A stretch of 64,000 bases of DNA from an uncultured Planctomycetales bacterium (GTDB taxonomy: Bacteria > Omnitrophota > Gorgyraeia > Gygaellales > Profunditerraquicolaceae), in NCBI GenBank assembly GCA_964579435.1, contig CAZOGI010000008.1:2096-66095 (forward strand). The letters are read 5' to 3'. The notes beneath the pieces are model-generated. The model was not told the origin of the DNA. It was given only the letters and a program-made list of their open reading frames with translations, and did no database searches. A program made the position numbers and the translations under genes. Position 1 is the first letter of the stretch. Each line of letters begins with the position of its first letter. Below, piece by piece: positions 11,037-60,146 of this stretch.

Positions 11037-11044
11037 ACTCTACG

Positions 11045-12372: not shown

Positions 12373-12376
12373 ATAT

Positions 12377-13438: not shown

Positions 13439-13457
13439 CATCTTACAATAAATAGAG

Positions 13458-14375: not shown

Positions 14376-14382
14376 CGTCCCC

Positions 14383-24378: not shown

Positions 24379-24380
24379 GT

Positions 24381-25905: not shown

Positions 25906-26008
25906 CAAAAAATTATAAGAAGACAGGCTATACCCCTCTTCTCATTCCACACTTCAAATCCCCCCTAAAGCTTCTGTTTTAGCGCTGCTGATCAGCACCT
26001 CATTTATT

Positions 26009-26057
26009 CTACCAAAAATTCTTATTTATTTAATTTTGGTAGTTTTTATGCTATACT
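26009..26057 (+). promoter_or_regulatory. Second copy of palindromic operator (CTACCAAAA-N16-TTTTGGTAG) with TGcTATACT extended -10, upstream of the second pseudopilin sub-operon
   Basis: 9-bp inverted repeat at 26009-26017 and 26034-26042 with a 16-nt AT-rich loop. ATGCTATACTT at 26048-26058 is identical to the string at 23947-23957. GGAGGAGG RBS, ATG at 26082. Confidence 0.45.
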
Positions 26058-26081
26058 TGTTTTGGGAGGAGGCGACGGGGT

Positions 26082-26495: not shown

Positions 26496-26497
26496 CC

Positions 26498-27097: not shown

Positions 27098-27112
27098 AAC
27101 AGGGAGGCACCC

Positions 27113-34569: not shown

Positions 34570-34938
34570 ATGGATGCGTCGGATAAACGCAAGTACCCGC
34601 GGCTCTTCTTCAACGTCAAGATCGATTACCAGAAGGTCGACGCCAACGCCCTGCCCCTGGCCAACACCTACAGCAAGAACATCGGGGGAGGCGGCATCTG
34701 CATGTTCTCGCTGGAGAAATTGGAGACGGGCACCGGGATCAAGCTGACCTTCACGCTGCCCGACCATAACAAGACCGTCGAAGCGCTCGGCAAGGTCGTC
34801 TGGGTTGACCGCTTCAGCATCGAGGACCGCCAGAACGAGACCGCCTACGAAGCCGGCATCGAGTTCGTTGATATCAACGACAAAGACCGCGCCCTCATCC
34901 AAACCTATGTCCTGGGGATCATGAAACAACCCTCCTAA
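34570..34938 (+). CDS. PilZ domain protein (putative c-di-GMP receptor)
   Basis: RKYPRLFF (the RxxxR-like motif) and NIGGGGICM (DxSxxG-like) are the PilZ signature pair. Single-domain protein of 122 aa. Confidence 0.6.
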   Translation: MDASDKRKYPRLFFNVKIDYQKVDANALPLANTYSKNIGGGGICMFSLEKLETGTGIKLTFTLPDHNKTVEALGKVVWVDRFSIEDRQNETAYEAGIEFVDINDKDRALIQTYVLGIMKQPS

Positions 34939-44868: not shown

Positions 44869-45691
44869 GCTGACGCCGCTTCAATCCCCTGCGAACGCGC
44901 CGTATCCCCAATACCGCCAGTGGAAAACGCCCCGCGCGCACTCCTGCGCCCTCCTCATCCACGGACTGGGCGCGCACAGCGGCAGGTGGGAATACCTCGC
45001 GGGGCGGCTCACCGCCGAGGGGATAGAAGGCTTCGCCGTCGAACTGAGGGGGTTTGGGGAATCCAGCGCCCCGGCAGGCGACATCGATTCCTTCCGGACC
45101 TATCGAAACGACCTGCTGCGGCTGCTCTCGATCATGACCGGGCAACCCGGCGGCGAGCACATCTTCGTTATCGCAGAGAGCATGGGTGCGCTCCTGGCCC
45201 TTTCTCTTGCGGCAGAACTGCCGCCCCAGTGCAGAGGACTGGCCTGCATGGCACCCGCGTTCAAAAGCCGACTTCCGTTCTCCTGGCGCGCACGCGCCGG
45301 CTTCCTGCTCAGCTGCCTGCTCAACCCGCTGCAGCGATTCGGACTGCCGATCAAAAGCGCCGAATGCACACGCGACCCGCTCATGCGCGCTCGCATGGAC
45401 CAGGATCCGAGGGAAAAACGCAGCGTCTCGGCGCGACAGCTGCGGGAGGTCCTGCGCCTGCAGCGGTACGCGGCGGCATGCGGCCCTGCGCTGTCGGTAC
45501 CGGTGCTCTTTCAGCTTGCGGGAGACGACCACATCATCGACTCCGCGGCGGCGCGGCGTTTCTTCTCCCGGCAATCCTGGCCCGACAAAGAACTCATCGA
45601 ATATCCGCAGATGGCCCATGTGCTGGCAATCGACCAAGGCAAGGAACGCGTCGCCGACGACCTTCTCGGCTGGATCAAGCGGCACCGGTAG
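44861..45691 (+). CDS. Alpha/beta hydrolase (lysophospholipase / monoacylglycerol-lipase-like)
   Basis: HGLGAHSGRWEY (the HG oxyanion motif), the nucleophile elbow IAESMGALLA (GxSxG variant AESMG), and C-terminal D and H residues. Confidence 0.7.
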   Translation: MPELTPLQSPANAPYPQYRQWKTPRAHSCALLIHGLGAHSGRWEYLAGRLTAEGIEGFAVELRGFGESSAPAGDIDSFRTYRNDLLRLLSIMTGQPGGEHIFVIAESMGALLALSLAAELPPQCRGLACMAPAFKSRLPFSWRARAGFLLSCLLNPLQRFGLPIKSAECTRDPLMRARMDQDPREKRSVSARQLREVLRLQRYAAACGPALSVPVLFQLAGDDHIIDSAAARRFFSRQSWPDKELIEYPQMAHVLAIDQGKERVADDLLGWIKRHR

Positions 45692-45704
45692 GAGGGACAT
45701 CCGT

Positions 45705-47177
45705 ATGCGCACGATCGTCGCGATCGATCAGGGAACGACCGGAAGCAGAGCGCTGGCGTACAATGCACACGGGGCCTGCGTGGCCAGCGCCTACCAGGAA
45801 TTCAGACAGCATTTTCCCCGGCCCGGCTGGGTTGAGCATGACCCGCGGGATATCGCTGAGAGCGTCCAAAGCTGCCTGGCGCGCCTGACGAAGAAGATAC
45901 CGGCCCGCTCCATCGCAGCGATCGGCATCACCAACCAGAGGGAAACGACCGTCCTCTGGGAACGCTCCACGGGCAGGCCGATAGCCAATGCGATCGTCTG
46001 GCAGTGCCGCCGGACCGCTCCCCGCTGCGCATCGCTCCAGAAAGACGCGCGGCTGGCCGCGGTTGTGCGCGAGAAGACCGGGCTGCCGATCGACGCCTAT
46101 TTTTCGGCGACCAAGATCGAATGGCTCCTCAGGAATACCCCCGGCGCCCTTGAGCGCGCGCGCAGGGGAGAGCTCTGTTTCGGCACCACCGACAGCTGGG
46201 TCCTCTGGAACCTCACCGCAGGCAAGAGCCATGCCACCGATCTCACCAACGCTTCACGCACCATGCTCTTTGATATCAACCGCCTGCGCTGGGATGCGGG
46301 CCTTTTGAGCCTTTTCTCCATACCGCAGGCGCTCCTGCCGCAGGCGCTGCCGTCTTCGGGGAACTTCGGCATCACCGCCAAGACCAAGGCGCTGCCCGCA
46401 GGCATACCGATAACCGGGATCGCCGGCGACCAACAGGCCGCGCTCTTCGGGCAGGCCTGCTTTGCTCCGGGACAGATGAAAAACACCTACGGAACCGGCA
46501 GTTTCATCCTGCTCAATACCGGCAGAAAACGCGTGCGCTCACGCCACGGGCTCATCACCACCCTGGGCTGCGCGGCGCAGACAGAAGCGGTATATGTGCT
46601 GGAAGGCTCGGTCTTCATCGCCGGAGCGGCGATCCAATGGCTGCGCGACGGGCTCAAGATCATCAACGCCGCCCCGGAAACCGAACAACTCGCCCGCAGC
46701 ATCGAGGGAAACGACGGCGTGTATTTCGTCCCCGCTCTCGTCGGCCTGGGCGCGCCCCACTGGAACCCGCAGGCGCGGGGGCTGATCTGCGGGATCACCC
46801 GCGGAACAAACCGGGCGCATTTGGCGCGCGCGGCGCTGGAGGCGATCTGCTACCAGACCAGGGACGTGCTGGAGGCGATGCGCAAGGACAGCGGCTTGAA
46901 GCTCGATCGCCTCAAGATCGACGGAGGAGCGGCAGCCAACGATTTCCTCTGCCAGTTCCAGGCGGATATCCTCGGCATTCCCGTGGTCCGACCCACGATC
47001 ATCGAAACGACCGCTCGGGGCGCCGCATACCTGGCCGGGCTGGGAAGCGGATATTGGGAAAACATCTCCCGGATCGGGCGCTTCGGGCAGCAAAACCGTA
47101 CGTTCATTCCGCGCATGAAGAAAAACCGGGCAGACGAACTGTACCGCGGCTGGAAAACAGCCGTCGGCAAAACCTGA
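45705..47177 (+). CDS. glpK: Glycerol kinase
   Basis: AIDQGTTGSRA, ITNQRETTVLW and GTTDSWVLWNLTAG are FGGY-family GlpK signatures. GGAGGGA RBS upstream. Confidence 0.9.
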   Translation: MRTIVAIDQGTTGSRALAYNAHGACVASAYQEFRQHFPRPGWVEHDPRDIAESVQSCLARLTKKIPARSIAAIGITNQRETTVLWERSTGRPIANAIVWQCRRTAPRCASLQKDARLAAVVREKTGLPIDAYFSATKIEWLLRNTPGALERARRGELCFGTTDSWVLWNLTAGKSHATDLTNASRTMLFDINRLRWDAGLLSLFSIPQALLPQALPSSGNFGITAKTKALPAGIPITGIAGDQQAALFGQACFAPGQMKNTYGTGSFILLNTGRKRVRSRHGLITTLGCAAQTEAVYVLEGSVFIAGAAIQWLRDGLKIINAAPETEQLARSIEGNDGVYFVPALVGLGAPHWNPQARGLICGITRGTNRAHLARAALEAICYQTRDVLEAMRKDSGLKLDRLKIDGGAAANDFLCQFQADILGIPVVRPTIIETTARGAAYLAGLGSGYWENISRIGRFGQQNRTFIPRMKKNRADELYRGWKTAVGKT

Positions 47178-47180
47178 CTT

Positions 47181-47984
47181 TTGACAATGAACCCCGACCG
47201 AGCGACCGGCGCTCCCGAGGCATCCCGGCACAGAGGCGTCTCGCTCTTCATCCCCGTCTATAACGCCGCGCACCTGCTCAACGACACCGTGCAGGCATGC
47301 GCCGCCTCCCTCGCCGGACTTGGGGAGGCCTGTGAGATCGTCATTGTAGACGACAATTCAACCGACGCGTCGCGTCAGCGGGCGCGTCTGCTCCAGGACC
47401 AATACCGGCACACGGGTATCCCGCTGCGTTGCCTCTCCTATACCCTTGGCCCGACCCGCCGGGAGAATTTGGCGCAATCGCTGCGGCTGGCGCGCCACGA
47501 AACGATCGGTTTCCTGGACGCCGATCGTTCCTGCGAAGCCTCTTTTCTGGTGAAGGCGATCCGGCTGCTTGAGACGGAACGCTGGGATATCGTCGTCGGA
47601 AGCCGTTATATCCCCGGCTCGACGCTCAAACGCCGCAAGGCACGGCGGATCATGAGCTTCTTTTACAACGCCACGGTCAGGCTGGTTTTCAAGAGCCGGA
47701 TACGGGACCACCAGTGCGGGCTGAAGGTATTCGATAAGCGCACCGTCATGCCCGTCATCGAAGAGATGGGCTTCGACGAAACCCTCACCCGGGGATGGTT
47801 CTGGGACGCGGAGCTCCTGATCCGCGCCCAGCGCAAGGGACTGACGATAAAAGAGATGCCTGTTGATTGGACGTATGCGGACACCAGCACCTTCGAGCTG
47901 AAACGCGAGCTGCGGTGCCTGAAGGCGATCCTGCGCCTATGGCGCACCCTGCGCAGCGCCAAAATTCCGGAGCCGTCTTGCTGA
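47181..47984 (+). CDS. Glycosyltransferase family 2, polyprenol-phosphate sugar transferase-like (DPM/GtrB-type)
   Basis: SLFIPVYNAA...IVIVDDNSTDAS...FLDADRS form the GT-A DxD pattern. GSRY...QCGLKVFDKR resembles GtrB/DPM1-type enzymes. Confidence 0.7.
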   Translation: MTMNPDRATGAPEASRHRGVSLFIPVYNAAHLLNDTVQACAASLAGLGEACEIVIVDDNSTDASRQRARLLQDQYRHTGIPLRCLSYTLGPTRRENLAQSLRLARHETIGFLDADRSCEASFLVKAIRLLETERWDIVVGSRYIPGSTLKRRKARRIMSFFYNATVRLVFKSRIRDHQCGLKVFDKRTVMPVIEEMGFDETLTRGWFWDAELLIRAQRKGLTIKEMPVDWTYADTSTFELKRELRCLKAILRLWRTLRSAKIPEPSC

Positions 47985-49012
47985 AATCACCCCTGTACCG
48001 TCTCCTCGCCGTTCTCCTGGGCGCGCTCCTGCCCTTGCTGCTCTTTGAGGCCTATATGAGCCTGGCGCTGCGCTTTCCCGTCCTGTGCACGAGAGCGACG
48101 CTGAAGTTTGCCGGATATATCTATTATTGGGGGTACCGGGAAGAGATCCAATTCAAACCCGAATGCGCCCGATACGATCCCGAACTCACCTATACGCTCA
48201 AGCCGGGGGCCTGCTCCTTTAAAGGGTCGGAGTTCGAAACCACCGTAGCGGTCAACAGCGCCGGCCTGCGCGACGACGAAAATTCCCTCGTCAAGCCGGA
48301 TATCATCGTGCTGGGCGACTCGATAGCGATGGGCTGGGGGGTAGACCAGGACGAAACCTATGCGCAGCTGATCGAAAAAAACGGCACGATGAAAGTCCTC
48401 AATGCCGGGATCGCATCGTACGGCACGGTACGGGAAATGCGCCTGCTCGATCGGCTCGATACATCGAACCTGAAATACCTCCTCATCCACTATATGTGGA
48501 ACGACGGCCGGGAGAACAAGGCATTCGCCATGAACCGGAACTCCCTCACTATCAGCAGCCAAGACGAATACCTGCGCGTGCGATCGCTCCACTTCCGCCG
48601 CAGGCGATACTTCCCCTTCAAATACACGCTCCTGAGTTTGTATTATCCGATACGCGGGATCAAAGCGCGGATACACCAAAAACTCAACGGCGCGCCGCAG
48701 CGCCCGGCAGAACAGGATGAATCCCCGTCGAGCGAAGCGCGATTGTTCCTCAATGCGCTGCTGCATGCCTCACGGACCGATCTGACGGGAGTCAGGGTAG
48801 CGGTCATTTCCCATGAAGAATATTTTTTGACGGCGCTCAAAGAAGAGCTGGCCACCGGAGACTATCCCGATCATATCAGGGAGATGACCATTATCCCCAT
48901 CCACGCGGCGTTAACGGGCAAAACTCAATTCTTTCTGGATGACCACCTCCGGGCCGAAGGGCACCGGATAATCGCCGCACAGATACACAAAACCCTCCCC
49001 CAAACCCGATGA
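47978..49012 (+). CDS. SGNH/GDSL hydrolase family protein with N-terminal TM anchor
   Basis: TM helix (LLAVLLGALLPLLLF), block I (IIVLGDSIAMGWG), block III-like (LNAGIASYGT). The start is uncertain: TTG at 47978 with GGAG 6 nt upstream, or the ATG at 47867 overlapping the upstream gene. Confidence 0.5.
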   Translation: MLKSPLYRLLAVLLGALLPLLLFEAYMSLALRFPVLCTRATLKFAGYIYYWGYREEIQFKPECARYDPELTYTLKPGACSFKGSEFETTVAVNSAGLRDDENSLVKPDIIVLGDSIAMGWGVDQDETYAQLIEKNGTMKVLNAGIASYGTVREMRLLDRLDTSNLKYLLIHYMWNDGRENKAFAMNRNSLTISSQDEYLRVRSLHFRRRRYFPFKYTLLSLYYPIRGIKARIHQKLNGAPQRPAEQDESPSSEARLFLNALLHASRTDLTGVRVAVISHEEYFLTALKEELATGDYPDHIREMTIIPIHAALTGKTQFFLDDHLRAEGHRIIAAQIHKTLPQTR

Positions 49013-49034
49013 GACACCCACAGGCAGGGGAACG

Positions 49035-50462
49035 ATGAGCACGCATGACCTGATCATAATCGGCGCCGGGATCACCGGGGCATCCGTCGCCCGCGAACTC
49101 TCGCGCTACCGCCTCAAGATCCTGGTCCTGGAACGGGAAGAAGAGCCGGCGTTCGGCGTCTCCAAATCCAACAGCGGCATCATCCATCCCGGTATTCAGA
49201 ATCCTCCCGGTTCGCTCAAAGGCCGTCTCTGCGTCGCCGGCAACCGGCTCGTGCGCACCCTCGCGCGCGAGCTGGGGGTCGATTTCAAAGAGGTCGGCGA
49301 GCTCGTCGTTGCCTTTACCGAGGCCGACCTGCGGCGCCTGCGCCAGATCGAGCGGGAGGGCATTGCCCTCGGCGTCCCGCGCCTGCGCATGGTCGACCGG
49401 GAGTGGCTGCGCCGAAACGAACCGAACCTGAACCGGGAGATCATCGGCGCGCTCCTGGCGCCCAGCGCCGGCATCATCAGCCCGTACCGCTTCGTCTACG
49501 ATCTCTGCGAGAACGCCGCGCGCAACGGCGTGCGCATCGAAACCGGCGCCCGGGTAGAGGCAATCGGGAGGACCGGCGGCGGTTTTGAGGTCTCCACCTC
49601 CCGCGGGATTTTCCGCAGCCGCTTTATCGCCAACTGCGCCGGGCTCTTTGCCGACGAGATCGCGCGCATGGTCGGGATCTTGGATTTCTCCGTCCGTGCG
49701 CGCAAGGGCGAGGAATTCCTGCTGGACAAAAAACGCCAGTACCTGACAAACCGGCTTATCTTTCCGCTCCCGCAGCAGAACTCCAAGGGCATCCTCATCA
49801 TCAAGACCGCGGACGGCAACCCGATGATCGGGCCGACGGCGCATGAAACCGACGACAAAAACGACCTCTCCACCAGCGACGCGGGATTGCGCGAAGTGCT
49901 GGATGCCGCCCGACGCCTGGTGCCGTCAATCGACGCAAAGGACATCATCGCGTATTTCGCCGGCCTAAGGCCGACAGTGGGGGAGGATTTCCTTATCCGC
50001 AGGGAGCCTGCGGTCCCCGGCATGATCACCGTCGCCGGGATACAATCCCCCGGGCTCACCGCGGCCTCGGCGATCGCGCCGCTGGTCGCCGGACTGCTGA
50101 GAGAAGCGGGGCTGCGGCTGCGCCGCAAGATCGTCTTTTACGCACACCGCCCACGATCGATCCACCTCTTCTCGATACCGCCCAACCGGACAAAAGCGCT
50201 GGTCGAAAAGGACCCGGCGTACGGCGATATCGTCTGCCGCTGCGAGATGGTCTCGGCTCAGGAGGTGCGCGATGCGATCCGCCGCGGGGCACGCACCCTC
50301 GACGGGATAAAATTCCGGACCCGCGCCCAGGCAGGACGCTGCCACGGCGGCTTCTGCACCACCCGCCTGATGAAAATCCTTGCCGAAGAGCTTTCGATTC
50401 CGGTCACTGCCGTCACCAAACGGGGGGCGGGGTCGCAGATCGTCACCGGAGGCCCGCTCTAG
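49035..50462 (+). CDS. FAD-dependent oxidoreductase, anaerobic glycerol-3-phosphate dehydrogenase-like, with C-terminal BFD-like [2Fe-2S] domain
   Basis: N-terminal FAD motif (DLIIIGAGITGASVAREL) and the C-terminal Cys pattern (CRCEMV...GRCHGGFC) typical of BFD-like domains in GlpA-type enzymes. Confidence 0.75.
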   Translation: MSTHDLIIIGAGITGASVARELSRYRLKILVLEREEEPAFGVSKSNSGIIHPGIQNPPGSLKGRLCVAGNRLVRTLARELGVDFKEVGELVVAFTEADLRRLRQIEREGIALGVPRLRMVDREWLRRNEPNLNREIIGALLAPSAGIISPYRFVYDLCENAARNGVRIETGARVEAIGRTGGGFEVSTSRGIFRSRFIANCAGLFADEIARMVGILDFSVRARKGEEFLLDKKRQYLTNRLIFPLPQQNSKGILIIKTADGNPMIGPTAHETDDKNDLSTSDAGLREVLDAARRLVPSIDAKDIIAYFAGLRPTVGEDFLIRREPAVPGMITVAGIQSPGLTAASAIAPLVAGLLREAGLRLRRKIVFYAHRPRSIHLFSIPPNRTKALVEKDPAYGDIVCRCEMVSAQEVRDAIRRGARTLDGIKFRTRAQAGRCHGGFCTTRLMKILAEELSIPVTAVTKRGAGSQIVTGGPL

Positions 50463-51457
50463 TGCGCAGACGCCAGTTGGTGATCGTCGGAGCCGGACCC
50501 GCGGGCATGGCCGCCGCACTCGCTGCCCGCGCCGAGGGCATCGAGGATATCCTGATGATCGAACGCGACCAGTTTCCCGGCGGCATCCTCAACCAGTGCA
50601 TCCACACCGGATTCGGGATCTTCCATTTCAGGGAAACCCTCACCGGTCCCGAATACGCCCAGCGCTTCATCGACCGGATCGAGCAAACCCCGGGCATCGA
50701 GATCAGCCTGCGCTCCTTCGCCGTGAAGCTTTCGCGCGAACGCGTCCTCACCTATCTGAAACCGGGCCGGATGGAAGAAGTGCGGGCAGAGGCATTGATC
50801 ATGGCCACCGGATGCAGGGAGCGCACGCGCGAGATGGTGCACCTCGCCGGCTCCCGGCCGGCGGGAGTCTTTCCTGCCGGCCTGGCCCAGAAACTGATCA
50901 ACTGCGAAGGGCTCCTGCCGGGAAGAAGCGTCGTTATTGTCGGGTCAGGTGATATCGGCCTGATCATGGCGCGCCGCTTCTCGCTCGAGGGCGCGGCGGT
51001 TAAAGCGGCCATCGAGATACTCCCCGAGCCGCGCGGCCTGGCGCGCAATATCGCTCAGTGCCTGGATGATTTCCGGATCCCCCTGTACCTGAGCCACCGG
51101 GTGAGCGCCATCCGGGGCGCTCAGCGCGTCCAGGGGGTGAGGGTGTGCCGGGTGGATGCCGACTGTACTGACGTGCCGGGAACGGAATTCGAGATGGAGT
51201 GCGACACGGTGCTCGTTTCGGTCGGCCTCATTCCGGAAAACGAGCTCCTGGAAATGGCCGGGGCGCAGATCGACCCGGCGAGCAACTGTCCCGTAACCAC
51301 CAATCCCCACGCCACCACTATCCCGGGGGTCTTTGTCTGCGGCAATGCCGCGCGGGTATATGATCTGGTGGACTGGGTTACCCGCGATAGCGCCAAGGCG
51401 GGGACAGAGGCGGCGCGCTATTTGAGGGGAGAGCAACAGAACGCCATTTCTGCATGA
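50462..51457 (+). CDS. NAD(P)/FAD-dependent oxidoreductase (pyridine nucleotide-disulfide oxidoreductase family)
   Basis: Two Rossmann motifs (LVIVGAGPAGMAAA and VVIVGSGDIGLIMA). The GTG start overlaps the upstream stop by 1 nt. Confidence 0.75.
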   Translation: MRRRQLVIVGAGPAGMAAALAARAEGIEDILMIERDQFPGGILNQCIHTGFGIFHFRETLTGPEYAQRFIDRIEQTPGIEISLRSFAVKLSRERVLTYLKPGRMEEVRAEALIMATGCRERTREMVHLAGSRPAGVFPAGLAQKLINCEGLLPGRSVVIVGSGDIGLIMARRFSLEGAAVKAAIEILPEPRGLARNIAQCLDDFRIPLYLSHRVSAIRGAQRVQGVRVCRVDADCTDVPGTEFEMECDTVLVSVGLIPENELLEMAGAQIDPASNCPVTTNPHATTIPGVFVCGNAARVYDLVDWVTRDSAKAGTEAARYLRGEQQNAISA

Positions 51458-51819
51458 AAAAAACATTCGTATGCATCGAATGCCCCAAGGGATGCCGCCT
51501 GCTCGCGGAGAGCGAGGGCAGCCGGCTGATCTCGGTCAGCGGACAGCAGTGCCCGCGGGGAGAAACCTATGCCCGCGCTGAAACCGAAAATCCTCAGCGC
51601 TTCGTCACCGGCACCGTACGCTGCGAAGGGCTGAACCTCAAACGGCTTCCGGTGCGTACCGACCGACCGGTCCCCAAAGACCGCGTCGCGCCGATCATGC
51701 ACGAGCTGCGCACGATCGTCATTACGCAGCCGCTGGGCTGCGGCGCGATCGTTCAAGAACGCATCCTGGGGCTGGAAGCGAACCTGGTCGCGACGCGACG
51801 CATCCAAAAGGCAGAATAG
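51454..51819 (+). CDS. DUF1667 domain protein (small Cys-containing subunit of the three-gene G3P-dehydrogenase-like cluster)
   Basis: CIECPKGC...CPRG cysteine motifs, 121 aa, and a position immediately after the two flavoprotein genes. Confidence 0.65.
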   Translation: MKKTFVCIECPKGCRLLAESEGSRLISVSGQQCPRGETYARAETENPQRFVTGTVRCEGLNLKRLPVRTDRPVPKDRVAPIMHELRTIVITQPLGCGAIVQERILGLEANLVATRRIQKAE

Positions 51820-51952: not shown

Positions 51953-52309
51953 ATGAAGATCTCCTGGGAAGAAAAAAAAGGAATCGCGCTCTGTAGCCTG
52001 AAAGGGGAGCTGACCATCGATACGGCAGACCAGCTCAAGAAGGAGCTTTCGGCCCTGAGCGCGCCGCCGCGCAGCGTGATCATCAACTGCACGGGCCTGA
52101 CGTACCTCGACAGCACCGGGATCGCCACGATCCTGGGCCTCGCCAAAACCCTGGAGGAGGCGGCAGCAAAGATGTTCCTGTGCTGCCTTTCCCCGAAACT
52201 GCGCACGGTACTGAGAATCACCAGGCTGGACTCGGTGCTGGCGATCTGTGACTCGCAACAGGAGGCGTTGCAACAATGCCTGAACCCGCCGCAACGGCAG
52301 CAGGAGTGA
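51953..52309 (+). CDS. STAS domain protein (anti-sigma factor antagonist, SpoIIAA/RsbV-like)
   Basis: INCTGLTYLDSTGIATILGLAK contains the conserved phosphorylatable-serine-region motif (DSxG). Confidence 0.7.
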   Translation: MKISWEEKKGIALCSLKGELTIDTADQLKKELSALSAPPRSVIINCTGLTYLDSTGIATILGLAKTLEEAAAKMFLCCLSPKLRTVLRITRLDSVLAICDSQQEALQQCLNPPQRQQE

Positions 52310-53004
52310 AAACCAGCAAGATATTCGAGTACGAGAAGAAGGTGCGCCAGACCTACGGAAAACTCAAAGCAGCGTACGCCGAGATCAAGGAATCGTACTC
52401 GGAGATGATCTTCCGCTTTGCCCTTGCGGCGGAATACAAGGACGAGTCCACCGGCACGCACCTGGTGCGCATCGCCGACTACTGCACCGAGATCGGCAAA
52501 GGCCTGAAGCTGCCGCGGCGCGCGCTGGAGACCCTGCGCTACGCCAGCCCCATGCACGACATCGGCAAGCTGGTCATACCGGACGCGATCCTCAAGAAAC
52601 CCGCGGGGCTGACCCCCGAGGAGCGGGAAGTCGTCAAAAAGCATACCACCCTCGGCGCCGATATCTTCAAAAGCTCCTCCTCCTCGATCCTCAAGGCCGC
52701 CGGGGAGATCAGCCTGACGCACCACGAACGCTACGACGGCACCGGTTATCCCCGCGGCCTGCGGGGGGACGCGATCCCGCTCTTCGGCAGGATCACCGCC
52801 CTGGCCGACGTTTTCGACGCGCTGACCACCAAAAGGCCGTACAAAGACGCGTACGACTTTCCGCACGCCTGCCGTATCATCGCGCACGAAGCGGGGAGCC
52901 ACTTTGACCCGCGCATCGTCTCGGTCTTCCTCGCGCGCAAAAAACGCATCCGCGAGATCCTCAAAGCCACCCAGGACATCGAACACTTCATTGAAGGACA
53001 CTGA
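52276..53004 (+). CDS. HD-GYP domain protein (c-di-GMP phosphodiesterase family)
   Basis: HD (MHDIGKL), HTTLGADI, HHERYDGTGYPRGL (GYP), and ADVFDALTTKRPYK. Overlaps the STAS gene by 34 nt. Confidence 0.75.
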   Translation: MPEPAATAAGVKTSKIFEYEKKVRQTYGKLKAAYAEIKESYSEMIFRFALAAEYKDESTGTHLVRIADYCTEIGKGLKLPRRALETLRYASPMHDIGKLVIPDAILKKPAGLTPEEREVVKKHTTLGADIFKSSSSSILKAAGEISLTHHERYDGTGYPRGLRGDAIPLFGRITALADVFDALTTKRPYKDAYDFPHACRIIAHEAGSHFDPRIVSVFLARKKRIREILKATQDIEHFIEGH

Positions 53005-53011
53005 CACCACC

Positions 53012-53437
53012 ATGCCCCCGGACACGACCCTTGTGCATCAAGAGCTGCCTTCGACGCTTGAAGCGGTCACCGCCTTCGCCGACGCATGCATCCAGAAGCT
53101 GCAGAAGGCGGGCATCGACCAGGATAAACTCTTCTCGATCAAACTGGCGCTGGGAGAAGCCCTCGCCAACGCCGTCAAACACGGCAATAGATTCGACCCC
53201 GCGCTCACCGTGACCGTCTCGATCGAACGGCGGGAAGACGCCCTGCAGATCTCGGTCCGCGACCAGGGCTCGGGTTTCGACAGCGCCGTCGTCCCCGACC
53301 CGACTCACCCGGAGAATCTCCTGAAAACCTCCGGCCGCGGCATTTTTTTGATCCGCTCGATCATGGACCGGGTCGAATTTTTGGATTGTGGCCGTCAGGT
53401 AAAGATGGTAAAATTACTCAATCACCGGGAGGACTGA
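53012..53437 (+). CDS. Anti-sigma regulatory factor-like serine protein kinase (RsbW/SpoIIAB-type GHKL ATPase)
   Basis: LALGEALANAVKHGN is the N-box (E..NA..HG). The G1/G2 region is VRDQGSGFD...SGRGIFLIRSIMD. Length 141 aa. Confidence 0.65.
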   Translation: MPPDTTLVHQELPSTLEAVTAFADACIQKLQKAGIDQDKLFSIKLALGEALANAVKHGNRFDPALTVTVSIERREDALQISVRDQGSGFDSAVVPDPTHPENLLKTSGRGIFLIRSIMDRVEFLDCGRQVKMVKLLNHRED

Positions 53438-53769
53438 TGGACATACGCGAAGAAAAACTCAACGACACCGTCGTCTGCTCCCTGGACGGGGAGGTCAACA
53501 TCAACAACTCCCCCGAACTGCGCAAATACTTCGACACGCTCGTCAAACGCAGCGAGAAGAAGGTGGTCGTCGATTTCGCGCGCGTTCCCTACATCGACAG
53601 CTCGGGCCTGGCCACCCTCATCGAAATGCTCCAGCGGCTCAAGCGCATCGGCGGGGAACTGCGTTTCTGCACCCTCGCACAAAAGGTCCAGGATGTCATA
53701 GAGGTGACGAAGCTCAACCGCCTCTTCTCCATATTCGACACGCGCGAAGCGGCGCTGAAAGATTTTTAA
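53437..53769 (+). CDS. STAS domain protein (anti-sigma antagonist-like; positioned as MlaB-like partner of the downstream Mla transporter)
   Basis: VDFARVPYIDSSGLATLIEM with the conserved serine. Its ATG overlaps the RsbW-like stop, and it sits directly upstream of mlaE. Confidence 0.65.
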   Translation: MDIREEKLNDTVVCSLDGEVNINNSPELRKYFDTLVKRSEKKVVVDFARVPYIDSSGLATLIEMLQRLKRIGGELRFCTLAQKVQDVIEVTKLNRLFSIFDTREAALKDF

Positions 53770-54558
53770 ATGGTAGAACGCCTCGGGCGCTTTGTCATCG
53801 AATACCTGCAGTGGCTCCTGGGCCTCGCCAGGCTCCTGAGAGAAATCCTCTTCTGGACCTTCATCGGCCCCTTCAAAGGCAAGGCCGCGCACCGGCAGAG
53901 CATCATGCAGCAGATGATCTTCGTCGGGATCCGTTCCACCCTCATCGTCTTTTTCGTCGATATCTTCACCGGCATCGTCCTGGCGATGCAATCGGCGTAC
54001 CAGCTGGAAAAAATGGGGGCGACCATCTACGTCGCCTCGCTGGTGGCGATCTCCGCCTGCCGCGAGCTGAGCCCCGTGCTCACCGCCCTCGTCGTCGCCG
54101 GGCGCACCGGCTCGGCCATCGCCGCGGAGCTGGGGACGATGCGCGTCACCGAACAGATCGAAGCCCTGGAGACGATGTCGATCAACCCGGTGCGCTTCCT
54201 GGCGGTCCCGCGGTTTCTGGCCCTCCTCTTCATGCTCCCGGCCCTGACGGTCGTGGGAAATTTGAGCGCCATACTCGGCGGCTTCATCGTCGGAACCGGC
54301 AGCCTCAGCATCAACCCGGATCTCTATATGCATACGACCTTCAAATTCCTGGCGATCAAGGACGTCACGACCGGGCTCTTCAAGGCATTCATCTTCGGCA
54401 TGATCATCGCCCTCATCGGCTGTTACGAAGGGCTCAACACCCGGGGCGGGGCGGAGGGCGTCGGCAAGAGCACCACGCGCAGCGTCGTGATCAGCTTTAT
54501 CCTGGTGATCCTGGCTGACTGCGTGATGACCACCATTTTCTACTTCTCCAACGTATGA
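53770..54558 (+). CDS. mlaE: MlaE-family ABC transporter permease
   Basis: MlaE/Ttg2B-type permease. The motif GRTGSAIAAELGTMRVTEQIEALETMSINP is strongly conserved in the family. Confidence 0.8.
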   Translation: MVERLGRFVIEYLQWLLGLARLLREILFWTFIGPFKGKAAHRQSIMQQMIFVGIRSTLIVFFVDIFTGIVLAMQSAYQLEKMGATIYVASLVAISACRELSPVLTALVVAGRTGSAIAAELGTMRVTEQIEALETMSINPVRFLAVPRFLALLFMLPALTVVGNLSAILGGFIVGTGSLSINPDLYMHTTFKFLAIKDVTTGLFKAFIFGMIIALIGCYEGLNTRGGAEGVGKSTTRSVVISFILVILADCVMTTIFYFSNV

Positions 54559-55385
54559 CGCAAACACAGAATAAAAACGGGCCGATCATCTCGGTACGCA
54601 ACGTCACGAAATCCTTTCAGGGCAAAAAGACCATCGACAACATCAGCCTCGATATCTATCCCGGGGAGACCTTCGTGATCATGGGCTGCTCCGGCTCCGG
54701 CAAGAGCACGCTCCTGCGCCTGATGACCGGGGCGATAAAACCCGACTCGGGCAGCATCATCATCAAGGGCAAAGACATCGCCCACGCCAGCGCCGAAGAG
54801 CTCAACGACATCCGCAAATCCTACGGCATGCTCTTCCAGTACTCCGCGCTCCTGGATTCCCTCGACGTCGAGGAGAACGTGGCGCTGCCGCTGCGGGAAC
54901 ACACGAAACTGGCGGATGAGATCATCGGGATCATCATCAAGATGAAACTCTCCCTCGTCGGGCTGCGCGGCTACGAGAAACATTTGCCTTCCCAGATCTC
55001 CGGCGGCATGCGCAAACGGGTGGGGCTGGCGCGGGCAATCGCCCTGGACCCGGACATCGTCTTCTACGATGAGCCGACCTCCGGCCTCGACCCGGTCGTC
55101 GGCGGCGTCATCGACAAGCTCATCAAGGACTTAAGCGAAAAACTCATGATCACCTCGGTCGTCGTCACTCACGACATGCAGAGCGTCTTCAACATCGGCG
55201 ACCGCATCGCGATGGTGCATAAAGGCACGATCGTCCAGATCGGGACGCGCGAGGAGATCCGCAGCTCCTCCAATCCCTATATCCAGCAGTTCATCCACGG
55301 CAGCCACGAAGGCCCCATCGATTTCTTCAAAGAGAACGCCTTCGCCGAAGAAACAGCCAATCAGAAGGAGACAAGAGCCCCATGA
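54555..55385 (+). CDS. mlaF: MlaF-family ABC transporter ATP-binding protein
   Basis: Walker A (GCSGSGKST), signature (ISGGMRKR), Walker B (IVFYDEPTSGLD). ATGA overlap with the upstream gene. Confidence 0.85.
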   Translation: MTQTQNKNGPIISVRNVTKSFQGKKTIDNISLDIYPGETFVIMGCSGSGKSTLLRLMTGAIKPDSGSIIIKGKDIAHASAEELNDIRKSYGMLFQYSALLDSLDVEENVALPLREHTKLADEIIGIIIKMKLSLVGLRGYEKHLPSQISGGMRKRVGLARAIALDPDIVFYDEPTSGLDPVVGGVIDKLIKDLSEKLMITSVVVTHDMQSVFNIGDRIAMVHKGTIVQIGTREEIRSSSNPYIQQFIHGSHEGPIDFFKENAFAEETANQKETRAP

Positions 55386-56002
55386 AGAAATTCACCAACG
55401 AGATCAAGGTCGGTACCTTCGCCCTCCTGTGCCTGGCCGGATTCGCCTACCTGATCGTCTCCACCGGCAAGCTCGACTTCAAGAAAGAAGGCTACTTCCT
55501 CTCGGTGGTCTTCAACGACGCCGCGGGTCTCGAGAAAAAAGCCCCGGTCATGCTCAACGGCCTGGAGATCGGCAAAGTCGAAGAGGTCTTCACCGATTAT
55601 TCCGACGACCAGACGCGCGTGGTCCTGAAACTGTGGATAGACGCAAAAACCAAGATCCGCTCCAACCCCACGGTCTCGATCAAGACGCTGGGGCTGATGG
55701 GGGAGAAGTTCGTGCAGATCACCTCGCACAAAGGGCCGACGTTCGTGGAGCCGGGGACGGTGCTGGAGGGCAGGCCCTACCTCGATATGGACGCGCTCCT
55801 GGAACAGGCCCAAACCATGACCCAGGAGATCACCACGCAGCTCAACACCCTCATAGCCCAGCTCAACGGCACGGTCGCGGAGAACAAGAGCTCCATCACC
55901 CAGATCGTCCAGAACCTGGAATCGACGACCCAGAACCTCGATGAGCTCAGCGCCGACGTCAAGGCGCACCCCTGGAAGCTGCTTTTTAAAGGAAAAGAAT
56001 AG
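55382..56002 (+). CDS. mlaD: MlaD-like MCE domain protein
   Basis: N-terminal TM helix (IKVGTFALLCLAGFAYLIV) followed by an MCE domain (APVMLNGLEIGKVEEV). Confidence 0.75.
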   Translation: MKKFTNEIKVGTFALLCLAGFAYLIVSTGKLDFKKEGYFLSVVFNDAAGLEKKAPVMLNGLEIGKVEEVFTDYSDDQTRVVLKLWIDAKTKIRSNPTVSIKTLGLMGEKFVQITSHKGPTFVEPGTVLEGRPYLDMDALLEQAQTMTQEITTQLNTLIAQLNGTVAENKSSITQIVQNLESTTQNLDELSADVKAHPWKLLFKGKE

Positions 56003-56055: not shown

Positions 56056-57117
56056 GTGGTGATGCAAGAAATACCAAAGACCTCGGGCATGGGACAAAAA
56101 ACACTCAAGGTTAAACTGTTTCCGTACAGCGTCGGCGTAGGCACCGTTTTTTTGGCGACCCTCCTGGGAGAACTGGTCAAACGCAGGCTCGACCCGACCA
56201 ACATCGTCATGTTTTACCTGTTGGCCGTCGTGGTCGTTTCGATCCGCTGCGGACAGGGGCCCTCGATCATGACGGCTGTCCTGAGCGTGCTCGCTTTCGA
56301 TTTCTTCCTTATACCGCCCTACCTGACGCTCTCCATTGACGACCTTGAATACCTCTTCACCTTCGCGGCATTCCTGGCGGTAGGCATCACCGTCAGCACC
56401 CTTACCTCGAAGGTACGAACGCAGATTCTCCAACGGCAGACCGAAAAACTCCATTCTGCACTCCTTAACTCGCTCTCCCATGATCTGAAAACACCCCTCG
56501 TTTCGATCACCGGGGCACTCAGCGCCCTGCTAGCGAGCGGTATGAAACTCACCCCCCAGCAGAATGAAAAACTGCTCATCACCGCCTACGGGGAATCCGA
56601 AAGGTTGACGCATCTGGTGAATAATTTGCTGGAGATGACCAGGACGGAATCGGGGGTTCTGCGCATTGCCAGAAAGCCGTGCGACCTGCAGGACTTCCTG
56701 GGCGCCTGCTTCGAACAATTCAAGAACAAAATCGGCAGCCGGCACATAACGATAAACATCCCCCCGGAGACACCCGAAGTTGCCGTTGATTTTCCGTATC
56801 TGCTCAAGGCTTTCACGAATATCATCGATAATGCCATCAAATATTCCCCCGAAGGTTCCCCGATCGAGATCACGGCCGCCGCGGCGGGTGCACGGATCCG
56901 CATCTCGGTGCGCGATCACGGCTGTGGGATAGGCAAAAACGACCTCACGCGCATCTTTGAAAAATTCTACCGGGTGCAGAACCCCCACAACGTGTCGGGA
57001 ACCGGCCTCGGCTTGAGCATTGCGAAAAACATCATTGAGGCTCATGGCGGCAGGATCAGCGCCGAGAGCGCCCCCGGAAATGGTGCCACCTTTCTCGTCG
57101 AGCTCCCGCTCACCTAA
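56056..57117 (+). CDS. Sensor histidine kinase, KdpD C-terminal-type (4 TM plus HisKA plus HATPase) lacking the N-terminal KdpD/Usp sensor domains
   Basis: Four TM helices are followed directly by the H-box (LSHDLKTPL), N-box (DNAIKYSPEG), G1 (VRDHGCGIG) and G2 (GTGLGLSI). At 353 aa it is far shorter than full-length KdpD (about 890 aa). Confidence 0.7.
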   Translation: MVMQEIPKTSGMGQKTLKVKLFPYSVGVGTVFLATLLGELVKRRLDPTNIVMFYLLAVVVVSIRCGQGPSIMTAVLSVLAFDFFLIPPYLTLSIDDLEYLFTFAAFLAVGITVSTLTSKVRTQILQRQTEKLHSALLNSLSHDLKTPLVSITGALSALLASGMKLTPQQNEKLLITAYGESERLTHLVNNLLEMTRTESGVLRIARKPCDLQDFLGACFEQFKNKIGSRHITINIPPETPEVAVDFPYLLKAFTNIIDNAIKYSPEGSPIEITAAAAGARIRISVRDHGCGIGKNDLTRIFEKFYRVQNPHNVSGTGLGLSIAKNIIEAHGGRISAESAPGNGATFLVELPLT

Positions 57118-57121
57118 AACC

Positions 57122-57823
57122 ATGACAGAACAGGCGAAACTGCGCATCCTGGTTGTTGACGACGAAAGGGCAATCCGGGACTTCCTTAAAACCTCTCTTT
57201 CGGCCCATGGATACATCGTTTTCGAGGCAGCGGGAGGAAAAGAGGCCTTGGCCGGCTCGATCGAAACGCATCCCGATGCCATCATACTCGACTTGGGTCT
57301 AGCGGACAAAGACGGCAAAGAGATCATCGTTAAGGTGCGCAAACGCGCAGAAACACCGATCATTGTCCTCTCGGTCCGGGATGATCCCGACGAAAAAATA
57401 GCCGCTCTGGATGCCGGAGCCGACGACTATCTCACCAAACCATTTTCCGTCGGTGAACTCCTGGCGCGCTTAAAAGCGGTCATGCGGCGCCTGGCACCCG
57501 CGGGAGGACAAGAACGTCTCACTTGCGGGAAACTGACTTTGGATATCATCAACCGCCGGGTGACGCTCGACGGCAGAGAGATCGCGCTTTCGCCGACCGA
57601 ATACACCATGCTCCAATTACTGATGACAAACGCCGGCAAAGTACTCACCCATAAACAGATCCTCCGCCGGGTATGGGACAAAACCGAGGATTTCGAGGGG
57701 ATCCTGCACCTCCTGCGCGTCACCATAAGCAATCTCCGCAGCAAGATCGAACCGAACCCCGGCAGGCCGACCTACCTCCTCACCGAACCGGGCGTAGGCT
57801 ACCGCCTACACACAGACGACTAG
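57122..57823 (+). CDS. kdpE: OmpR-family response regulator, KdpE-like
   Basis: Receiver domain (LVVDDE, phospho-accepting aspartate in IILDLGLAD, conserved lysine in YLTKPF) plus a winged-helix (LTPTEYTMLQLLMTNAGKVLTHKQI). Confidence 0.8.
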   Translation: MTEQAKLRILVVDDERAIRDFLKTSLSAHGYIVFEAAGGKEALAGSIETHPDAIILDLGLADKDGKEIIVKVRKRAETPIIVLSVRDDPDEKIAALDAGADDYLTKPFSVGELLARLKAVMRRLAPAGGQERLTCGKLTLDIINRRVTLDGREIALSPTEYTMLQLLMTNAGKVLTHKQILRRVWDKTEDFEGILHLLRVTISNLRSKIEPNPGRPTYLLTEPGVGYRLHTDD

Positions 57824-57997
57824 GCGGTTTTGACCTTTTTTTGACTTGTCTCCGCCCCCCCATCAGGGTATCCTAAAAAACCGAATCAACGCTTGATACA
57901 CACGCTCTCCGGAGAAATCCCACTCTCTGGGTTTTTTATGCTTGCCGACACCCCTGCACGGGGACCGTGCGGGACACGAAACAAGCGCGCCGAACCG

Positions 57998-58117
57998 ATG
58001 AAGAAAAACAGACTCCTCTGCAATGCCGCATTGGGGATCCTGGTCGAGATTGTATTCGCGCTCTTGATCATCATCCTCGGGCTGGCCCTTGCGCAGGGAA
58101 TAAACGCGTCACGATGA
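57998..58117 (+). CDS. Possible small single-TM membrane protein (39 aa) translationally coupled to trkH
   Basis: MKKNRLLCNAALGILVEIVFALLIIILGLALAQGINASR. Its stop TGA overlaps the trkH ATG (ATGA). No obvious Shine-Dalgarno sequence, so this is speculative. Confidence 0.25.
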   Translation: MKKNRLLCNAALGILVEIVFALLIIILGLALAQGINASR

Positions 58118-59619
58118 TGCTCAGACCGCAAAGATCGGACATCCAAAGCGTCGGTTATTACCTGGGTAGGATCATACTTGGCCTCGGCCTCACCATGTAT
58201 CTGCCGTTCATTGCCGGTCTCGTGCTTTTCAAGGAAGCCGGACCGGCCCTCGACTTCCTGATCAGCGCCAATATCTCGGTGTGCCTCGGCTTACTGCTGG
58301 ACTGGCTCTGCAAGACCGAACACGATCTGCGCGCCGGACCCGCAATGGTCGTTATCGGCCTCGCCTGGCTGGCGGCGATGACACTCAGTGCCCTCCCGCT
58401 GTTCTGGAGTTGCCACTTCAAATCGTTTCTCGATGCCTGCTTCGAGACGATGTCAGGCTTCACGACCACCGGATTGACCCTGGTGCAGGATCTGGACCAT
58501 CTTTCGCTGACCCATAACCTGTGGCGCCACCTGGGACCGTTCTTGGGAGGGCAGGGGATAGCGATCATCGCGATTTCATTCCTCGTCGGAAACCCCAGCG
58601 GCTCGCTCAACCTGTACCTGGGAGAAGGCCGCGACGAAAAACTGGTTCCCAACGTCATCCACACGGCGCGCTTCATCTGGGGCATCAGCGTCACCTATTT
58701 GATCCTCGGCACACTCCTCCTGGGCCTGGCGGGACTGTCTATCGGCCTCCCGCCTCGAAGCGCCTTCTTCCACGCGGTCTGCATCTTTATGGCAGGATTC
58801 GACACCGCAGGATTCGCTCCAACATCACCCAATATTCTTTACTACCACAGCCTTCTGTATGAGATGCTCACGATATGTTTCATGGTCATCGGCTCCTTTA
58901 ATTTCAATCTGCACTACCGGATCTGGAACGGAGATTTCAAGGAGATCGGCAAAAACATCGAGACTCGCTCATTGCTTCTCATCGTGACGCTCGTTTCTCT
59001 CGTCGTTCTCTCGGGACTCGTTCAGGCAGGCGTTTATCCGAACGGAATAATCCTGTTCCGCAAGGGATTCTATCATATTATTTCGGGCCAAACCACGACC
59101 GGGTACATGACGATCTATGCTCAACAGTTCATCAACGACTGGGGAGGACTGGCTCTGACGGGGCTCATCGTTGCCATGGGTTTGGGCGGATGCGCGTGTT
59201 CCACCGCAGGCGGCATCAAGATGCTGCGCGTCGGGATTATCGCAAAGGCATTCGCGCAGGATATGCGAAGCTTTCTATTGCCCTCCCGGGCGATAGTGAC
59301 ACAACGATTCCATCACATGAAGACAATGTTCGTTGAAGACAGACACGTGCGTACCGTGCTGATCATTACCATAGGATACCTCCTCCTTTACGCGGCCGGC
59401 ACCCTGGCGGGGCTGGCGTCGGGCTACCCTCTTCTTGAATCCTTGTTTGAGTCTACGTCTGCGGCGGGCAACGTCGGACTTTCCTGCGGAATAACCGATG
59501 CGGCCATGCCCGCAGGGCTTAAAATCGTCTATATCATCGAGATGTGGGCGGGCAGGCTTGAACTCCTCTCCGTCTTCGCGCTCTTTGGGTTTTTCGTCTC
59601 TCTCTTCAGGGGCAAATAA
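58114..59619 (+). CDS. trkH: TrkH/KtrB-family potassium transporter membrane subunit
   Basis: Multiple M-P-M repeats with a selectivity-filter-like glycine motif (GFTTTGLT...). About 500 aa, as in the TrkH family. Confidence 0.85.
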   Translation: MMLRPQRSDIQSVGYYLGRIILGLGLTMYLPFIAGLVLFKEAGPALDFLISANISVCLGLLLDWLCKTEHDLRAGPAMVVIGLAWLAAMTLSALPLFWSCHFKSFLDACFETMSGFTTTGLTLVQDLDHLSLTHNLWRHLGPFLGGQGIAIIAISFLVGNPSGSLNLYLGEGRDEKLVPNVIHTARFIWGISVTYLILGTLLLGLAGLSIGLPPRSAFFHAVCIFMAGFDTAGFAPTSPNILYYHSLLYEMLTICFMVIGSFNFNLHYRIWNGDFKEIGKNIETRSLLLIVTLVSLVVLSGLVQAGVYPNGIILFRKGFYHIISGQTTTGYMTIYAQQFINDWGGLALTGLIVAMGLGGCACSTAGGIKMLRVGIIAKAFAQDMRSFLLPSRAIVTQRFHHMKTMFVEDRHVRTVLIITIGYLLLYAAGTLAGLASGYPLLESLFESTSAAGNVGLSCGITDAAMPAGLKIVYIIEMWAGRLELLSVFALFGFFVSLFRGK

Positions 59620-59621: not shown

Positions 59622-60146
59622 ATGCGCCGATTACCATGGGCGATCGCCGGTTTCGCTGCGCTGACCCTTACCTGTTCGAGGGCACACGGGCAGGAACGTT
59701 CGAACCTGGAGTTGCTCAACAATACCACGAAGCATGACGGACAAAACCTGATATGCAGAGGAGAAGTAATAGGAGATATTATGCGGCGCGGTGACCACGC
59801 CTGGATACACCTCAATGACGGGACAGCAACGATCGGCATATGGGCGGCAGCCGATGATGTCCGGTCAATAGCCACAACCGGTAGTTACGGGAGGAGAGGA
59901 GACACCGTTGAGATAAACGGAACGCTCCACCGCAGCTGCCCCGAACACGCAGGAGATCTCGATATACACGCTCAGAGCCTCATAGTCCTGAGCCCCGGCT
60001 CGACTCTTGCCACCTCGGTCAGCGTGAAAAAGCGTTTCGCAGGTACCGTTTCTTTCTTCCTCGTCCTTGTATCCTACGCGCTCAAACGCATGCTTCGGCG
60101 AACCGGCTCCGGGCATACGCCCTCTGCCAACCGGCAGCCGCGGTAA
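59622..60146 (+). CDS. Hypothetical exported protein with C-terminal hydrophobic anchor
   Basis: Signal peptide (AIAGFAALTLTCSRAHG) and C-terminal TM (VSFFLVLVSYAL). No recognizable domain. Confidence 0.35.
   Translation: MRRLPWAIAGFAALTLTCSRAHGQERSNLELLNNTTKHDGQNLICRGEVIGDIMRRGDHAWIHLNDGTATIGIWAAADDVRSIATTGSYGRRGDTVEINGTLHRSCPEHAGDLDIHAQSLIVLSPGSTLATSVSVKKRFAGTVSFFLVLVSYALKRMLRRTGSGHTPSANRQPR

Follow-up and report, generated by a model that had tools for sequence, protein, structure and literature searches.

Gene content of the locus

Positions 51953-56002 of the DNA analysed here, a 64-kb stretch referred to below as the window, are occupied by seven open reading frames (ORFs) on the + strand, in which genes of the partner-switching type run directly into those of an Mla-like ATP-binding cassette (ABC) lipid transporter. 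The first two encode STAS1 (51953-52309; 118 amino acids (aa); Pfam STAS PF01740, E 2e-19) and a stand-alone HD-GYP phosphodiesterase-type protein (52276-53004; 242 aa; Pfam HD_5, E 1.8e-36). They are followed by an RsbW/SpoIIAB-type GHKL serine kinase (53012-53437; 141 aa; HATPase_c_2, E 1.4e-28), a second STAS protein of the SpoIIAA/RsbV type, STAS2 (53437-53769; 110 aa; PF01740, E 3.2e-21), the MlaE permease (53770-54558; 262 aa; PF02405, E 2.4e-80), the MlaF ABC ATPase (54555-55385; 276 aa; ABC_tran, E 1.8e-32) and the MCE-domain protein MlaD (55382-56002; 206 aa; PF02470, E 9.9e-18), which has a membrane-anchor-like hydrophobic stretch at its N-terminus.

An initial annotation of this DNA had placed the same seven genes here, tightly packed with overlaps of 34 and 1 nucleotides (nt), and the ORFs, Pfam matches and junctions all agree with it. 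Read from the sequence, the successive junctions measure -34, +7, -1, 0, -4 and -4 nt; the STAS2 start shares 1 nt with the kinase stop, and the STAS2 stop abuts the mlaE start. The 34-nt overlap of STAS1 and HD-GYP is supported by a good AGGAGG 10 nt ahead of the HD-GYP ATG at 52276. Genes called independently on a 2.9-kb Logan contig from the same organism yield identical products of 118, 242, 141 and 110 aa. This packing would fit a single transcription unit for the seven genes; a scan for consensus sigma-70 promoters and terminators returned counts at or near shuffle level that are uninformative on the operon limits. The best matches of the kinase, STAS2, HD-GYP and MlaE are from Candidatus Omnitrophota, all at no more than 77% identity.

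The initial annotation treated the four signalling genes as a single partner-switching module. The STAS1-HD-GYP combination is, however, a conserved pair in its own right that occurs elsewhere without kinase or mla genes (see the section on module A), and the region therefore consists of two conserved Omnitrophota modules arranged head to tail: module A (51953-53004), comprising STAS1 and HD-GYP, and module B (53012-56002), comprising the kinase, STAS2 and mlaEFD.

The kinase and STAS2

The kinase is of the type that phosphorylates STAS domains, as had been suggested from the sequence. Its ATP-binding boxes are intact, namely N (E49, N53), G1 (D84-x-G86-x-G88) and G2 (G108-x-G110), and at least 95% of the 59 Mla-linked orthologs share residues E49, N53, G58, D84, G86, G88, G108 and G110. 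Among solved structures it matches RsbW (6m36, E 2e-9) and SpoIIAB (1th8, E 2e-7), and its next relatives in the database, beyond the window's own protein, show 47-50% identity. Its top solved match, ahead of these two, is a 304-aa chain deposited as 'SenB' (PDB 9qih, E 3e-14); a literature search on this entry found only the unrelated selenoneine SenB, a Se-glycosyltransferase, and no description of 9qih.

Both STAS proteins carry the conserved serine that the initial annotation had singled out for checking, Ser54 in STAS1 and Ser55 in STAS2. In STAS2 it lies in the motif Y-I-D-S55-S-G-L, aligned with the phosphorylated serine of TM1442 and SpoIIAA, and the start of helix 2 thus has the phosphorylatable Ser/Thr (DS[ST]G) typical of partner switching. 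Residues Y52, D54, S55, S56, G57, A59, T60 and E63 of this helix (YxDSSGLATLxE) are invariant in all 78 sequences compared. An AlphaFold2 model of STAS2 (mean predicted local distance difference test score 93.5) gives template modelling (TM) scores of about 0.9 to TM1442, RsbV and SpoIIAA in Foldseek. More than 120 STAS2 orthologs are present in the protein database; where a name is given it reads just 'STAS domain-containing protein' or 'anti-sigma B factor antagonist', and the source is Candidatus Omnitrophota or Aceula.

STAS2 was also placed by the initial annotation in the position of MlaB. The gene abuts mlaE and its Ser55 aligns with Thr52 of Escherichia coli MlaB, but by sequence and fold STAS2 is of the SpoIIAA/RsbV type and not of the MlaB family. 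A single-sequence comparison with MlaB gives E 0.18. In the profile comparison, profile positions 44-89 pair with E. coli MlaB residues 41-86, and Ser55 falls on what we take to be Thr52, the position coming from the profile match. Orthology of STAS2 to MlaB was rejected as a family assignment on fold and profile scores, and the likeness is retained here as a functional analogy.

Conservation of the kinase-STAS2-mla linkage

The linkage was surveyed from both sides, by scanning a kinase alignment against species-representative genomes, with local annotation of the loci by phmmer, and by scanning an MlaE alignment against metagenomes. The two closest kinase relatives both lie within kinase-STAS-MlaE-ABC-MlaD strings, one of which continues with FecR, a BBP2-like protein and CHASE2-SpoIIE, while the other is preceded by a STAS and an Ion_trans_2 protein. 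Five of the six best matches in the kinase survey are Mla-linked, namely four Candidatus Omnitrophota metagenome-assembled genomes (MAGs; L006-L009) and one labelled Planctomycetia (L011), as are the lower-ranked L066 (Omnitrophota) and L084 (an uncultured TARA MAG).

In the metagenomes, the window's MlaE has 80 relatives at 59-77% identity; an exact look-up of its sequence gave no match. Where at least 1 kb of DNA is available upstream of mlaE, a STAS gene lies directly upstream in 48 of 56 loci and the kinase is also present in 46; a 47th (L096) has the kinase fused to STAS2. The linkage of STAS, kinase and mlaEFD is not a local accident. Dereplication at 90% MlaE identity leaves 56 STAS-linked clusters, with the kinase in view in 43 and a STAS2-to-mlaE gap of 5 nt or less in 40. 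Chance juxtaposition of kinase, STAS2 and mla genes was rejected, given the conserved linkage and the tight STAS2-mlaE gap. Module B thus forms the central part of a cluster that 56 non-redundant relatives share, of which the named ones are mostly Candidatus Omnitrophota. Fusions of STAS to MlaE or MlaF were sought among the STAS2 homologs and none was found, the listed matches all being about 110 aa. The sole fusion found is that of L096, where one 249-aa ORF (2666-3415) directly upstream of mlaE contains kinase and STAS2; it may be a natural fusion or an assembly frameshift.

These surveys bear on whether the module is a classical partner switch with an unlinked target. The kinase would then be an anti-sigma factor or other inhibitor and STAS2 its antagonist, while mlaEFD would merely share the operon, for example as part of an envelope-stress regulon, with no post-translational control of the transporter. 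Such a role would suit proteins that are, in sequence and fold, ordinary relatives of SpoIIAB/RsbW and SpoIIAA/RsbV. It would also suit the sixth best kinase match (L010, Omnitrophota), where a kinase-PP2C-STAS-STAS module stands without mla, and the related kinase-STAS pairs without mla in Acidobacteriota and Planctomycetes. The neighbouring STAS proteins of some 70 such distant kinases score only 40-65 bits, however, whereas Mla-linked STAS2 scores 126-165 bits and forms a distinct clade. The short gap between STAS2 and mlaE also speaks against an unlinked target, as does the lack of a sigma factor gene. The initial annotation had already noted that none is present, and none was found in the whole 64-kb window, either in Pfam scans of 67 ORF translations, which included all large + strand ORFs, or with jackhmmer using SigF and RpoE queries; the same queries found no sigma gene within 6-8 kb in about 75 Mla-linked loci. 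Co-expression alone would further struggle to account for the changes in MlaF and the substitution of STAS2 in a sister clade described next. Overall, we consider a classical switch of this kind unlikely.

The MlaF tail and the receiver-domain swap

The best PDB matches of MlaF are those of Acinetobacter baumannii (1.5e-72), Pseudomonas aeruginosa and E. coli, followed by mycobacterial MceG, and the alignment extends through the C-terminal QQF-x-G-xx-EGP-I-x-F extension (QQFIxGxxEGPI motif). In E. coli the C-terminal tail of MlaF packs against MlaB (Kolich et al., 2020; PMC7367683). Counted from the end of the GP[ILV] motif, this tail measures 13-16 aa in 48 of the 52 STAS-linked proteins, with 21 aa in the window, as against 4-5 aa in three of the four complete MlaFs from loci that lack the STAS gene and carry a receiver; the fourth (L134) has 12 aa.

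Nine loci from the MlaE scan lack the STAS gene and have enough upstream DNA to judge its replacement. Eight of these carry a stand-alone response-regulator receiver (120-134 aa; Pfam E 1e-24 to 1e-28) directly upstream of mlaE, in the place of STAS2: L134:3174-3536, L136:5576-5962, L151:4481-4873, L152:1586-1990, L159:46-438, L163:762-1145, L164:5582-5974 and L165:5589-5975. In the ninth (L154), no STAS gene and no receiver gene precedes mlaE. A small phosphorylatable protein is thus kept before mlaE, with matching changes in MlaF, and the protein would therefore act on the transporter itself, beyond co-expression; with a negative class of four for the tail covariation, this evidence is suggestive.

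Action on the transporter could also take an inverted form. By the canonical logic of these families, the kinase would bind and inhibit MlaF as SpoIIAB does sigma F, and dephosphorylated STAS2 would remove the kinase without ever touching the transporter. The gene order kinase-STAS-target and the conserved linkage fit this wiring as well as they fit direct docking of STAS2. It is nevertheless the STAS gene, always abutting mlaE, that is swapped for a receiver, and in L087 and L088 an ion-channel gene splits the kinase from STAS2-mlaE. In E. coli, moreover, a STAS protein is already known to bind MlaF directly: Thr52 of MlaB occupies the middle of its interface with MlaF, and a T52E substitution weakens MlaF binding (Kolich et al., 2020; PMC7367683). 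We therefore regard inverted wiring as improbable, a little more so than the classical switch.

Phosphatase and envelope genes in related loci

Of about 20 STAS-positive loci that extend far enough downstream, 16 have a CHASE2-SpoIIE phosphatase gene after mlaD (counted by hand). Also after mlaD are one to three FecR-like genes (30 loci) and a gene for a protein of about 337 aa with a weak BBP2 barrel signal (24 loci), while an Ion_trans_2 channel gene occurs in the cluster in 10 loci. Because the CHASE2-SpoIIE phosphatase follows mlaD in most relatives, the family as a whole appears to carry a complete kinase/substrate/phosphatase cycle, with a predicted extracytoplasmic sensor.

The window differs in that all four of these genes, FecR-like, barrel-like, CHASE2-SpoIIE and Ion_trans_2, are absent. 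No PP2C was detected in the 64 kb by the Pfam scans of the 67 ORF translations or by phmmer with two different SpoIIE phosphatases. The absence of a PP2C noted in the initial annotation therefore stands for the window, but not as a trait of the family. In the place where relatives have the FecR-like, barrel-like and CHASE2-PP2C genes, the window has a DUF4118-HisKA-HATPase histidine kinase (56056-57117, +) and an OmpR-type response regulator (57122-57823, +), both assigned from Pfam and translation, followed by TrkH. Homologs of the histidine kinase/OmpR-type pair were not found after mlaD in any related locus, and the pair is probably outside the module.

The FecR-like genes (one to three copies, with DUF7354) and the barrel-like gene (weak BBP2_2) are conserved between mlaD and CHASE2-PP2C, for example in L125:8191-10041, L007:5427-9076 and L084:10974-14031. 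Their products could be the sensor input, or a periplasmic or outer-membrane part of the transporter. The Ion_trans_2 (K+-channel-like) gene recurs in L125 (11917-12645), L008, L009, L066, L087, L088, L091, L092, L096 and L099. It lies between kinase and STAS2 in L087 and L088, and on the P0002 contig between a STAS gene and the kinase, where the window has HD-GYP. The window's own KdpD-C-like histidine kinase, OmpR-type regulator and TrkH (56056-59619) make a potassium theme possible.

A proposed phospho-switch on the transporter

We propose, with moderate confidence, that STAS2 is a functional equivalent of MlaB whose association with MlaF is controlled by phosphorylation. Module B would then be a partner-switching-type phospho-switch without a sigma factor, having as its output the Mla-like ABC lipid transporter itself. 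Unphosphorylated STAS2 would dock on the helical subdomain and C-terminal tail of MlaF in the manner of MlaB, licensing assembly or ATPase activity. Phosphorylation of Ser55 by the kinase, at the position of MlaB Thr52, would release STAS2 and turn the transporter down, and a PP2C, in most relatives the membrane CHASE2-SpoIIE protein, would reset the switch on an envelope signal. The input is probably of this kind, because CHASE2-SpoIIE adjoins the FecR-like and barrel-like genes. In the window's organism the phosphatase would be encoded elsewhere or missing. We infer the phosphotransfer, the binding of STAS2 to MlaF and the sign of its effect from the conserved linkage, the intact motifs with invariant Ser55 and the correlations seen in the MlaF tail and the receiver swap.

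Several points weigh against this proposal. Its support consists of gene context and motifs, and the relatives compared are all MAGs or metagenome contigs. The family profile of STAS2 matches anti-sigma antagonists at E 2e-19 (TM1442) to 4e-13, and MlaB of P. aeruginosa and E. coli at 9e-4 and 1.8e-3, respectively, and there is no MlaB chain among the Foldseek top 50 for the STAS2 model. Because STAS2 is so much closer to the anti-sigma antagonists than to MlaB, some probability stays with a classical anti-anti-sigma role, and a sigma factor or other target of the kinase could be encoded elsewhere in the genome. The lack of a PP2C in the window weakens the case for reversibility in this organism. 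Finally, the tail correlation depends on only four complete STAS-less MlaFs, among them that of L134 with its 12 residues.

Module A and cyclic di-GMP

STAS1 is a single-domain STAS protein with Ser54 in a Y-L-D-S-T-G motif, of which the D-S is kept across its family. Its neighbour matches the active HD-GYP protein PmGH of Persephonella marina (PDB 4mcw) at E 2e-52, with 181 bits across the catalytic domain, and keeps the HD and HHERYDGTGYP motifs, in accordance with the HHExxDGxGYP signature of a predicted phosphodiesterase. It differs from PmGH in that only about 50 N-terminal helix residues replace the sensor domain, and in being paired with a STAS gene. More than 100 HD-GYP orthologs exist at 60-72% identity, the named ones all from Candidatus Omnitrophota/Omnitrophica.

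Of the seven distinct contexts in which the HD-GYP gene was seen, six have a STAS gene of about 113 aa directly upstream of it (L166, from a complete genome of 1.8 Mb; L167/168; L171/172; L173; L107; and the window), and the seventh (L169/170) has HD-GYP without the STAS gene. In four loci with called genes the STAS/HD-GYP junction ranges from a 12-nt gap to an 11-nt overlap, compared with the 34-nt overlap of the window. Neither kinase nor mla genes were found near the pair in L166, L167/168, L171/172 or L173. It adjoins the kinase-STAS2-mla module only in the window and in L107, where a STAS-HD-GYP-7TM/GAF/SpoIIE operon (7TM, seven-transmembrane) is divergent from it. The gating of Mla by cyclic di-GMP (c-di-GMP) proposed in the initial annotation thus finds no support beyond adjacency in these two loci; an input of this kind is at best a local feature, and the juxtaposition is possibly due to chance. 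With module A placed before the kinase in the window, the same kinase may also control STAS1 and thereby c-di-GMP hydrolysis.

If the kinase served another substrate, such as STAS1 acting on HD-GYP, STAS2 could be a constitutive structural subunit resembling MlaB, with no phospho-control of the transporter. E. coli MlaB functions without any known kinase (PMC7367683), and in the window a STAS protein with an acceptor serine is encoded just upstream of the kinase. Most kinase-STAS2-mla loci, however, have no STAS1 or HD-GYP nearby, and STAS1-HD-GYP pairs are usually found away from any kinase. The invariance of Ser55 and its flanking motif and the existence of a kinase-STAS2 fusion would also be hard to square with a constitutive subunit, and we consider it very unlikely.

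The proposed switch on STAS2 can be extended, tentatively and with more doubt than assent, to an envelope feedback circuit with several outputs. The barrel protein, in the outer membrane, and the FecR-like protein, in the periplasm, would signal to CHASE2-PP2C, which would oppose the kinase; STAS would switch Mla, and the same kinase-phosphatase pair would drive STAS1/HD-GYP and STAS/Ion_trans_2, all without a sigma factor. In sister lineages, a receiver phosphorylated on Asp would have taken the place of the STAS protein phosphorylated on Ser.

Further c-di-GMP components in the window are a PilZ-domain protein (34570-34938, +; E 2.9e-12), a GAF-GGDEF cyclase (38681-39898, -) and a second HD_5 protein (14344-15411, +). 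PilZ genes are found in other loci too, in L171 beside the STAS-HD-GYP pair and in L107 after mlaD.

Relation to known systems

MlaB is the STAS subunit of the MlaF ATPase in the MlaFEDB complex (Thong et al., 2016, PMC5016091; Kolich et al., 2020, PMC7367683). As in E. coli, A. baumannii and P. aeruginosa MlaFEDB, the window has MlaE, MlaF with its C-terminal extension, MlaD and a small STAS protein encoded in the operon, and a hydroxyl residue occupies the same STAS position (Ser55 for Thr52). The STAS gene lies at the end of the operon in those species but before mlaE here, the protein is of the anti-sigma-antagonist type (profile E to MlaB about 1e-3), and it is accompanied by a dedicated RsbW-type kinase, with a PP2C in relatives, whereas no kinase is known for MlaB. 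In contrast to the MlaFEDB-MlaC-MlaA system, the window contains no mlaC or mlaA; there is no Pfam match to periplasmic MlaC or outer-membrane MlaA (VacJ) among the 67 ORFs scanned, and relatives have FecR-like and barrel-like genes after mlaD.

Module B shares its families, acceptor serine and kinase boxes with the SpoIIAA/SpoIIAB/SpoIIE and RsbV/RsbW/RsbU systems of Bacillus, and the clusters of its relatives share with them a SpoIIE-family phosphatase with a sensor domain. It differs in having no sigma factor at the locus and in the order kinase-STAS-transporter; in the relatives, the phosphatase sensor is an extracytoplasmic CHASE2 domain encoded beside FecR-like and barrel-like genes.

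Partner-switching-like modules that work independently of sigma factors include Pseudomonas HsbR/HsbA, which acts on the diguanylate cyclase HsbD, and Bordetella BtrU/V/W. HsbA-HsbD is a precedent for the pairing of STAS proteins with c-di-GMP enzymes, as in STAS1-HD-GYP. Others are HenR/STAS of Anabaena, which acts on a glycosyltransferase (PMC13555669), and SypE/SypA of Vibrio fischeri (PMC10120452). Like the arrangement proposed for module B, all four combine a phosphorylated STAS protein with an enzyme or machine as output; unlike it, none has, according to our literature searches, an ABC transporter ATPase as output or a link to Mla/MCE.

The initial annotation held that this regulatory layer had not been described for Mla. 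Full-text literature searches, with subscription-only literature outside their scope, found no paper describing a kinase-linked Mla system, but the idea itself is not new: Kolich et al. (2020; PMC7367683) had already raised phosphoregulation of MlaB as a possibility, left open for want of a kinase and with 'no experimental evidence'. As every part and the underlying idea have precedents, module B is not categorically new. What is new here is a dedicated kinase and phosphatase.

These findings bear on the post-translational regulation of Mla/MCE transporters, since this widespread lineage carries a kinase, a predicted phospho-acceptor STAS protein and usually a sensor phosphatase in the transporter operon itself. 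It thereby offers a natural test system for phospho-switching of Mla, with an idea that is testable with a handful of recombinant proteins. If the proposal is true, an ABC transporter would join the few outputs of partner switching that are not sigma factors. The exchange of STAS for a receiver suggests a general design, with a small phosphorylatable subunit encoded in front of mlaE. Should the multi-output reading also be true, Omnitrophota would control membrane machines directly via a partner-switching network.

Other features of the window

A glycerol-type catabolic set (45186-51819, +) lies just upstream of STAS1 across a 133-nt gap. It includes an FGGY kinase, a DAO/BFD flavoprotein resembling glycerol-3-phosphate dehydrogenase, Pyr_redox_2 and DUF1667, with GT2 and GDSL-like genes interleaved. 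At the other end of the window is an envelope polysaccharide or lipopolysaccharide (LPS)-type cluster (723-16466, +), with two GT9 heptosyltransferases, GT4, GT1, a DegT aminotransferase, WbqC, PIG-L, a WecA-like GT4 and a Poly_export/SLBB protein. The GT9 heptosyltransferases fit an LPS-bearing outer membrane.

Pfam gave no match at E 1e-4 for five consecutive ORFs at 24192-28747 (+; 217, 341, 137, 220 and 544 aa), nor for those at 9423-10952 (509 aa), 40075-41862 (595 aa) and 59622-60146 (174 aa). Across the window (1-64000), long ORFs with coding-like GC content at third codon positions are almost all on the + strand, and all but one of the 32 2-kb bins (31) show negative GC skew.

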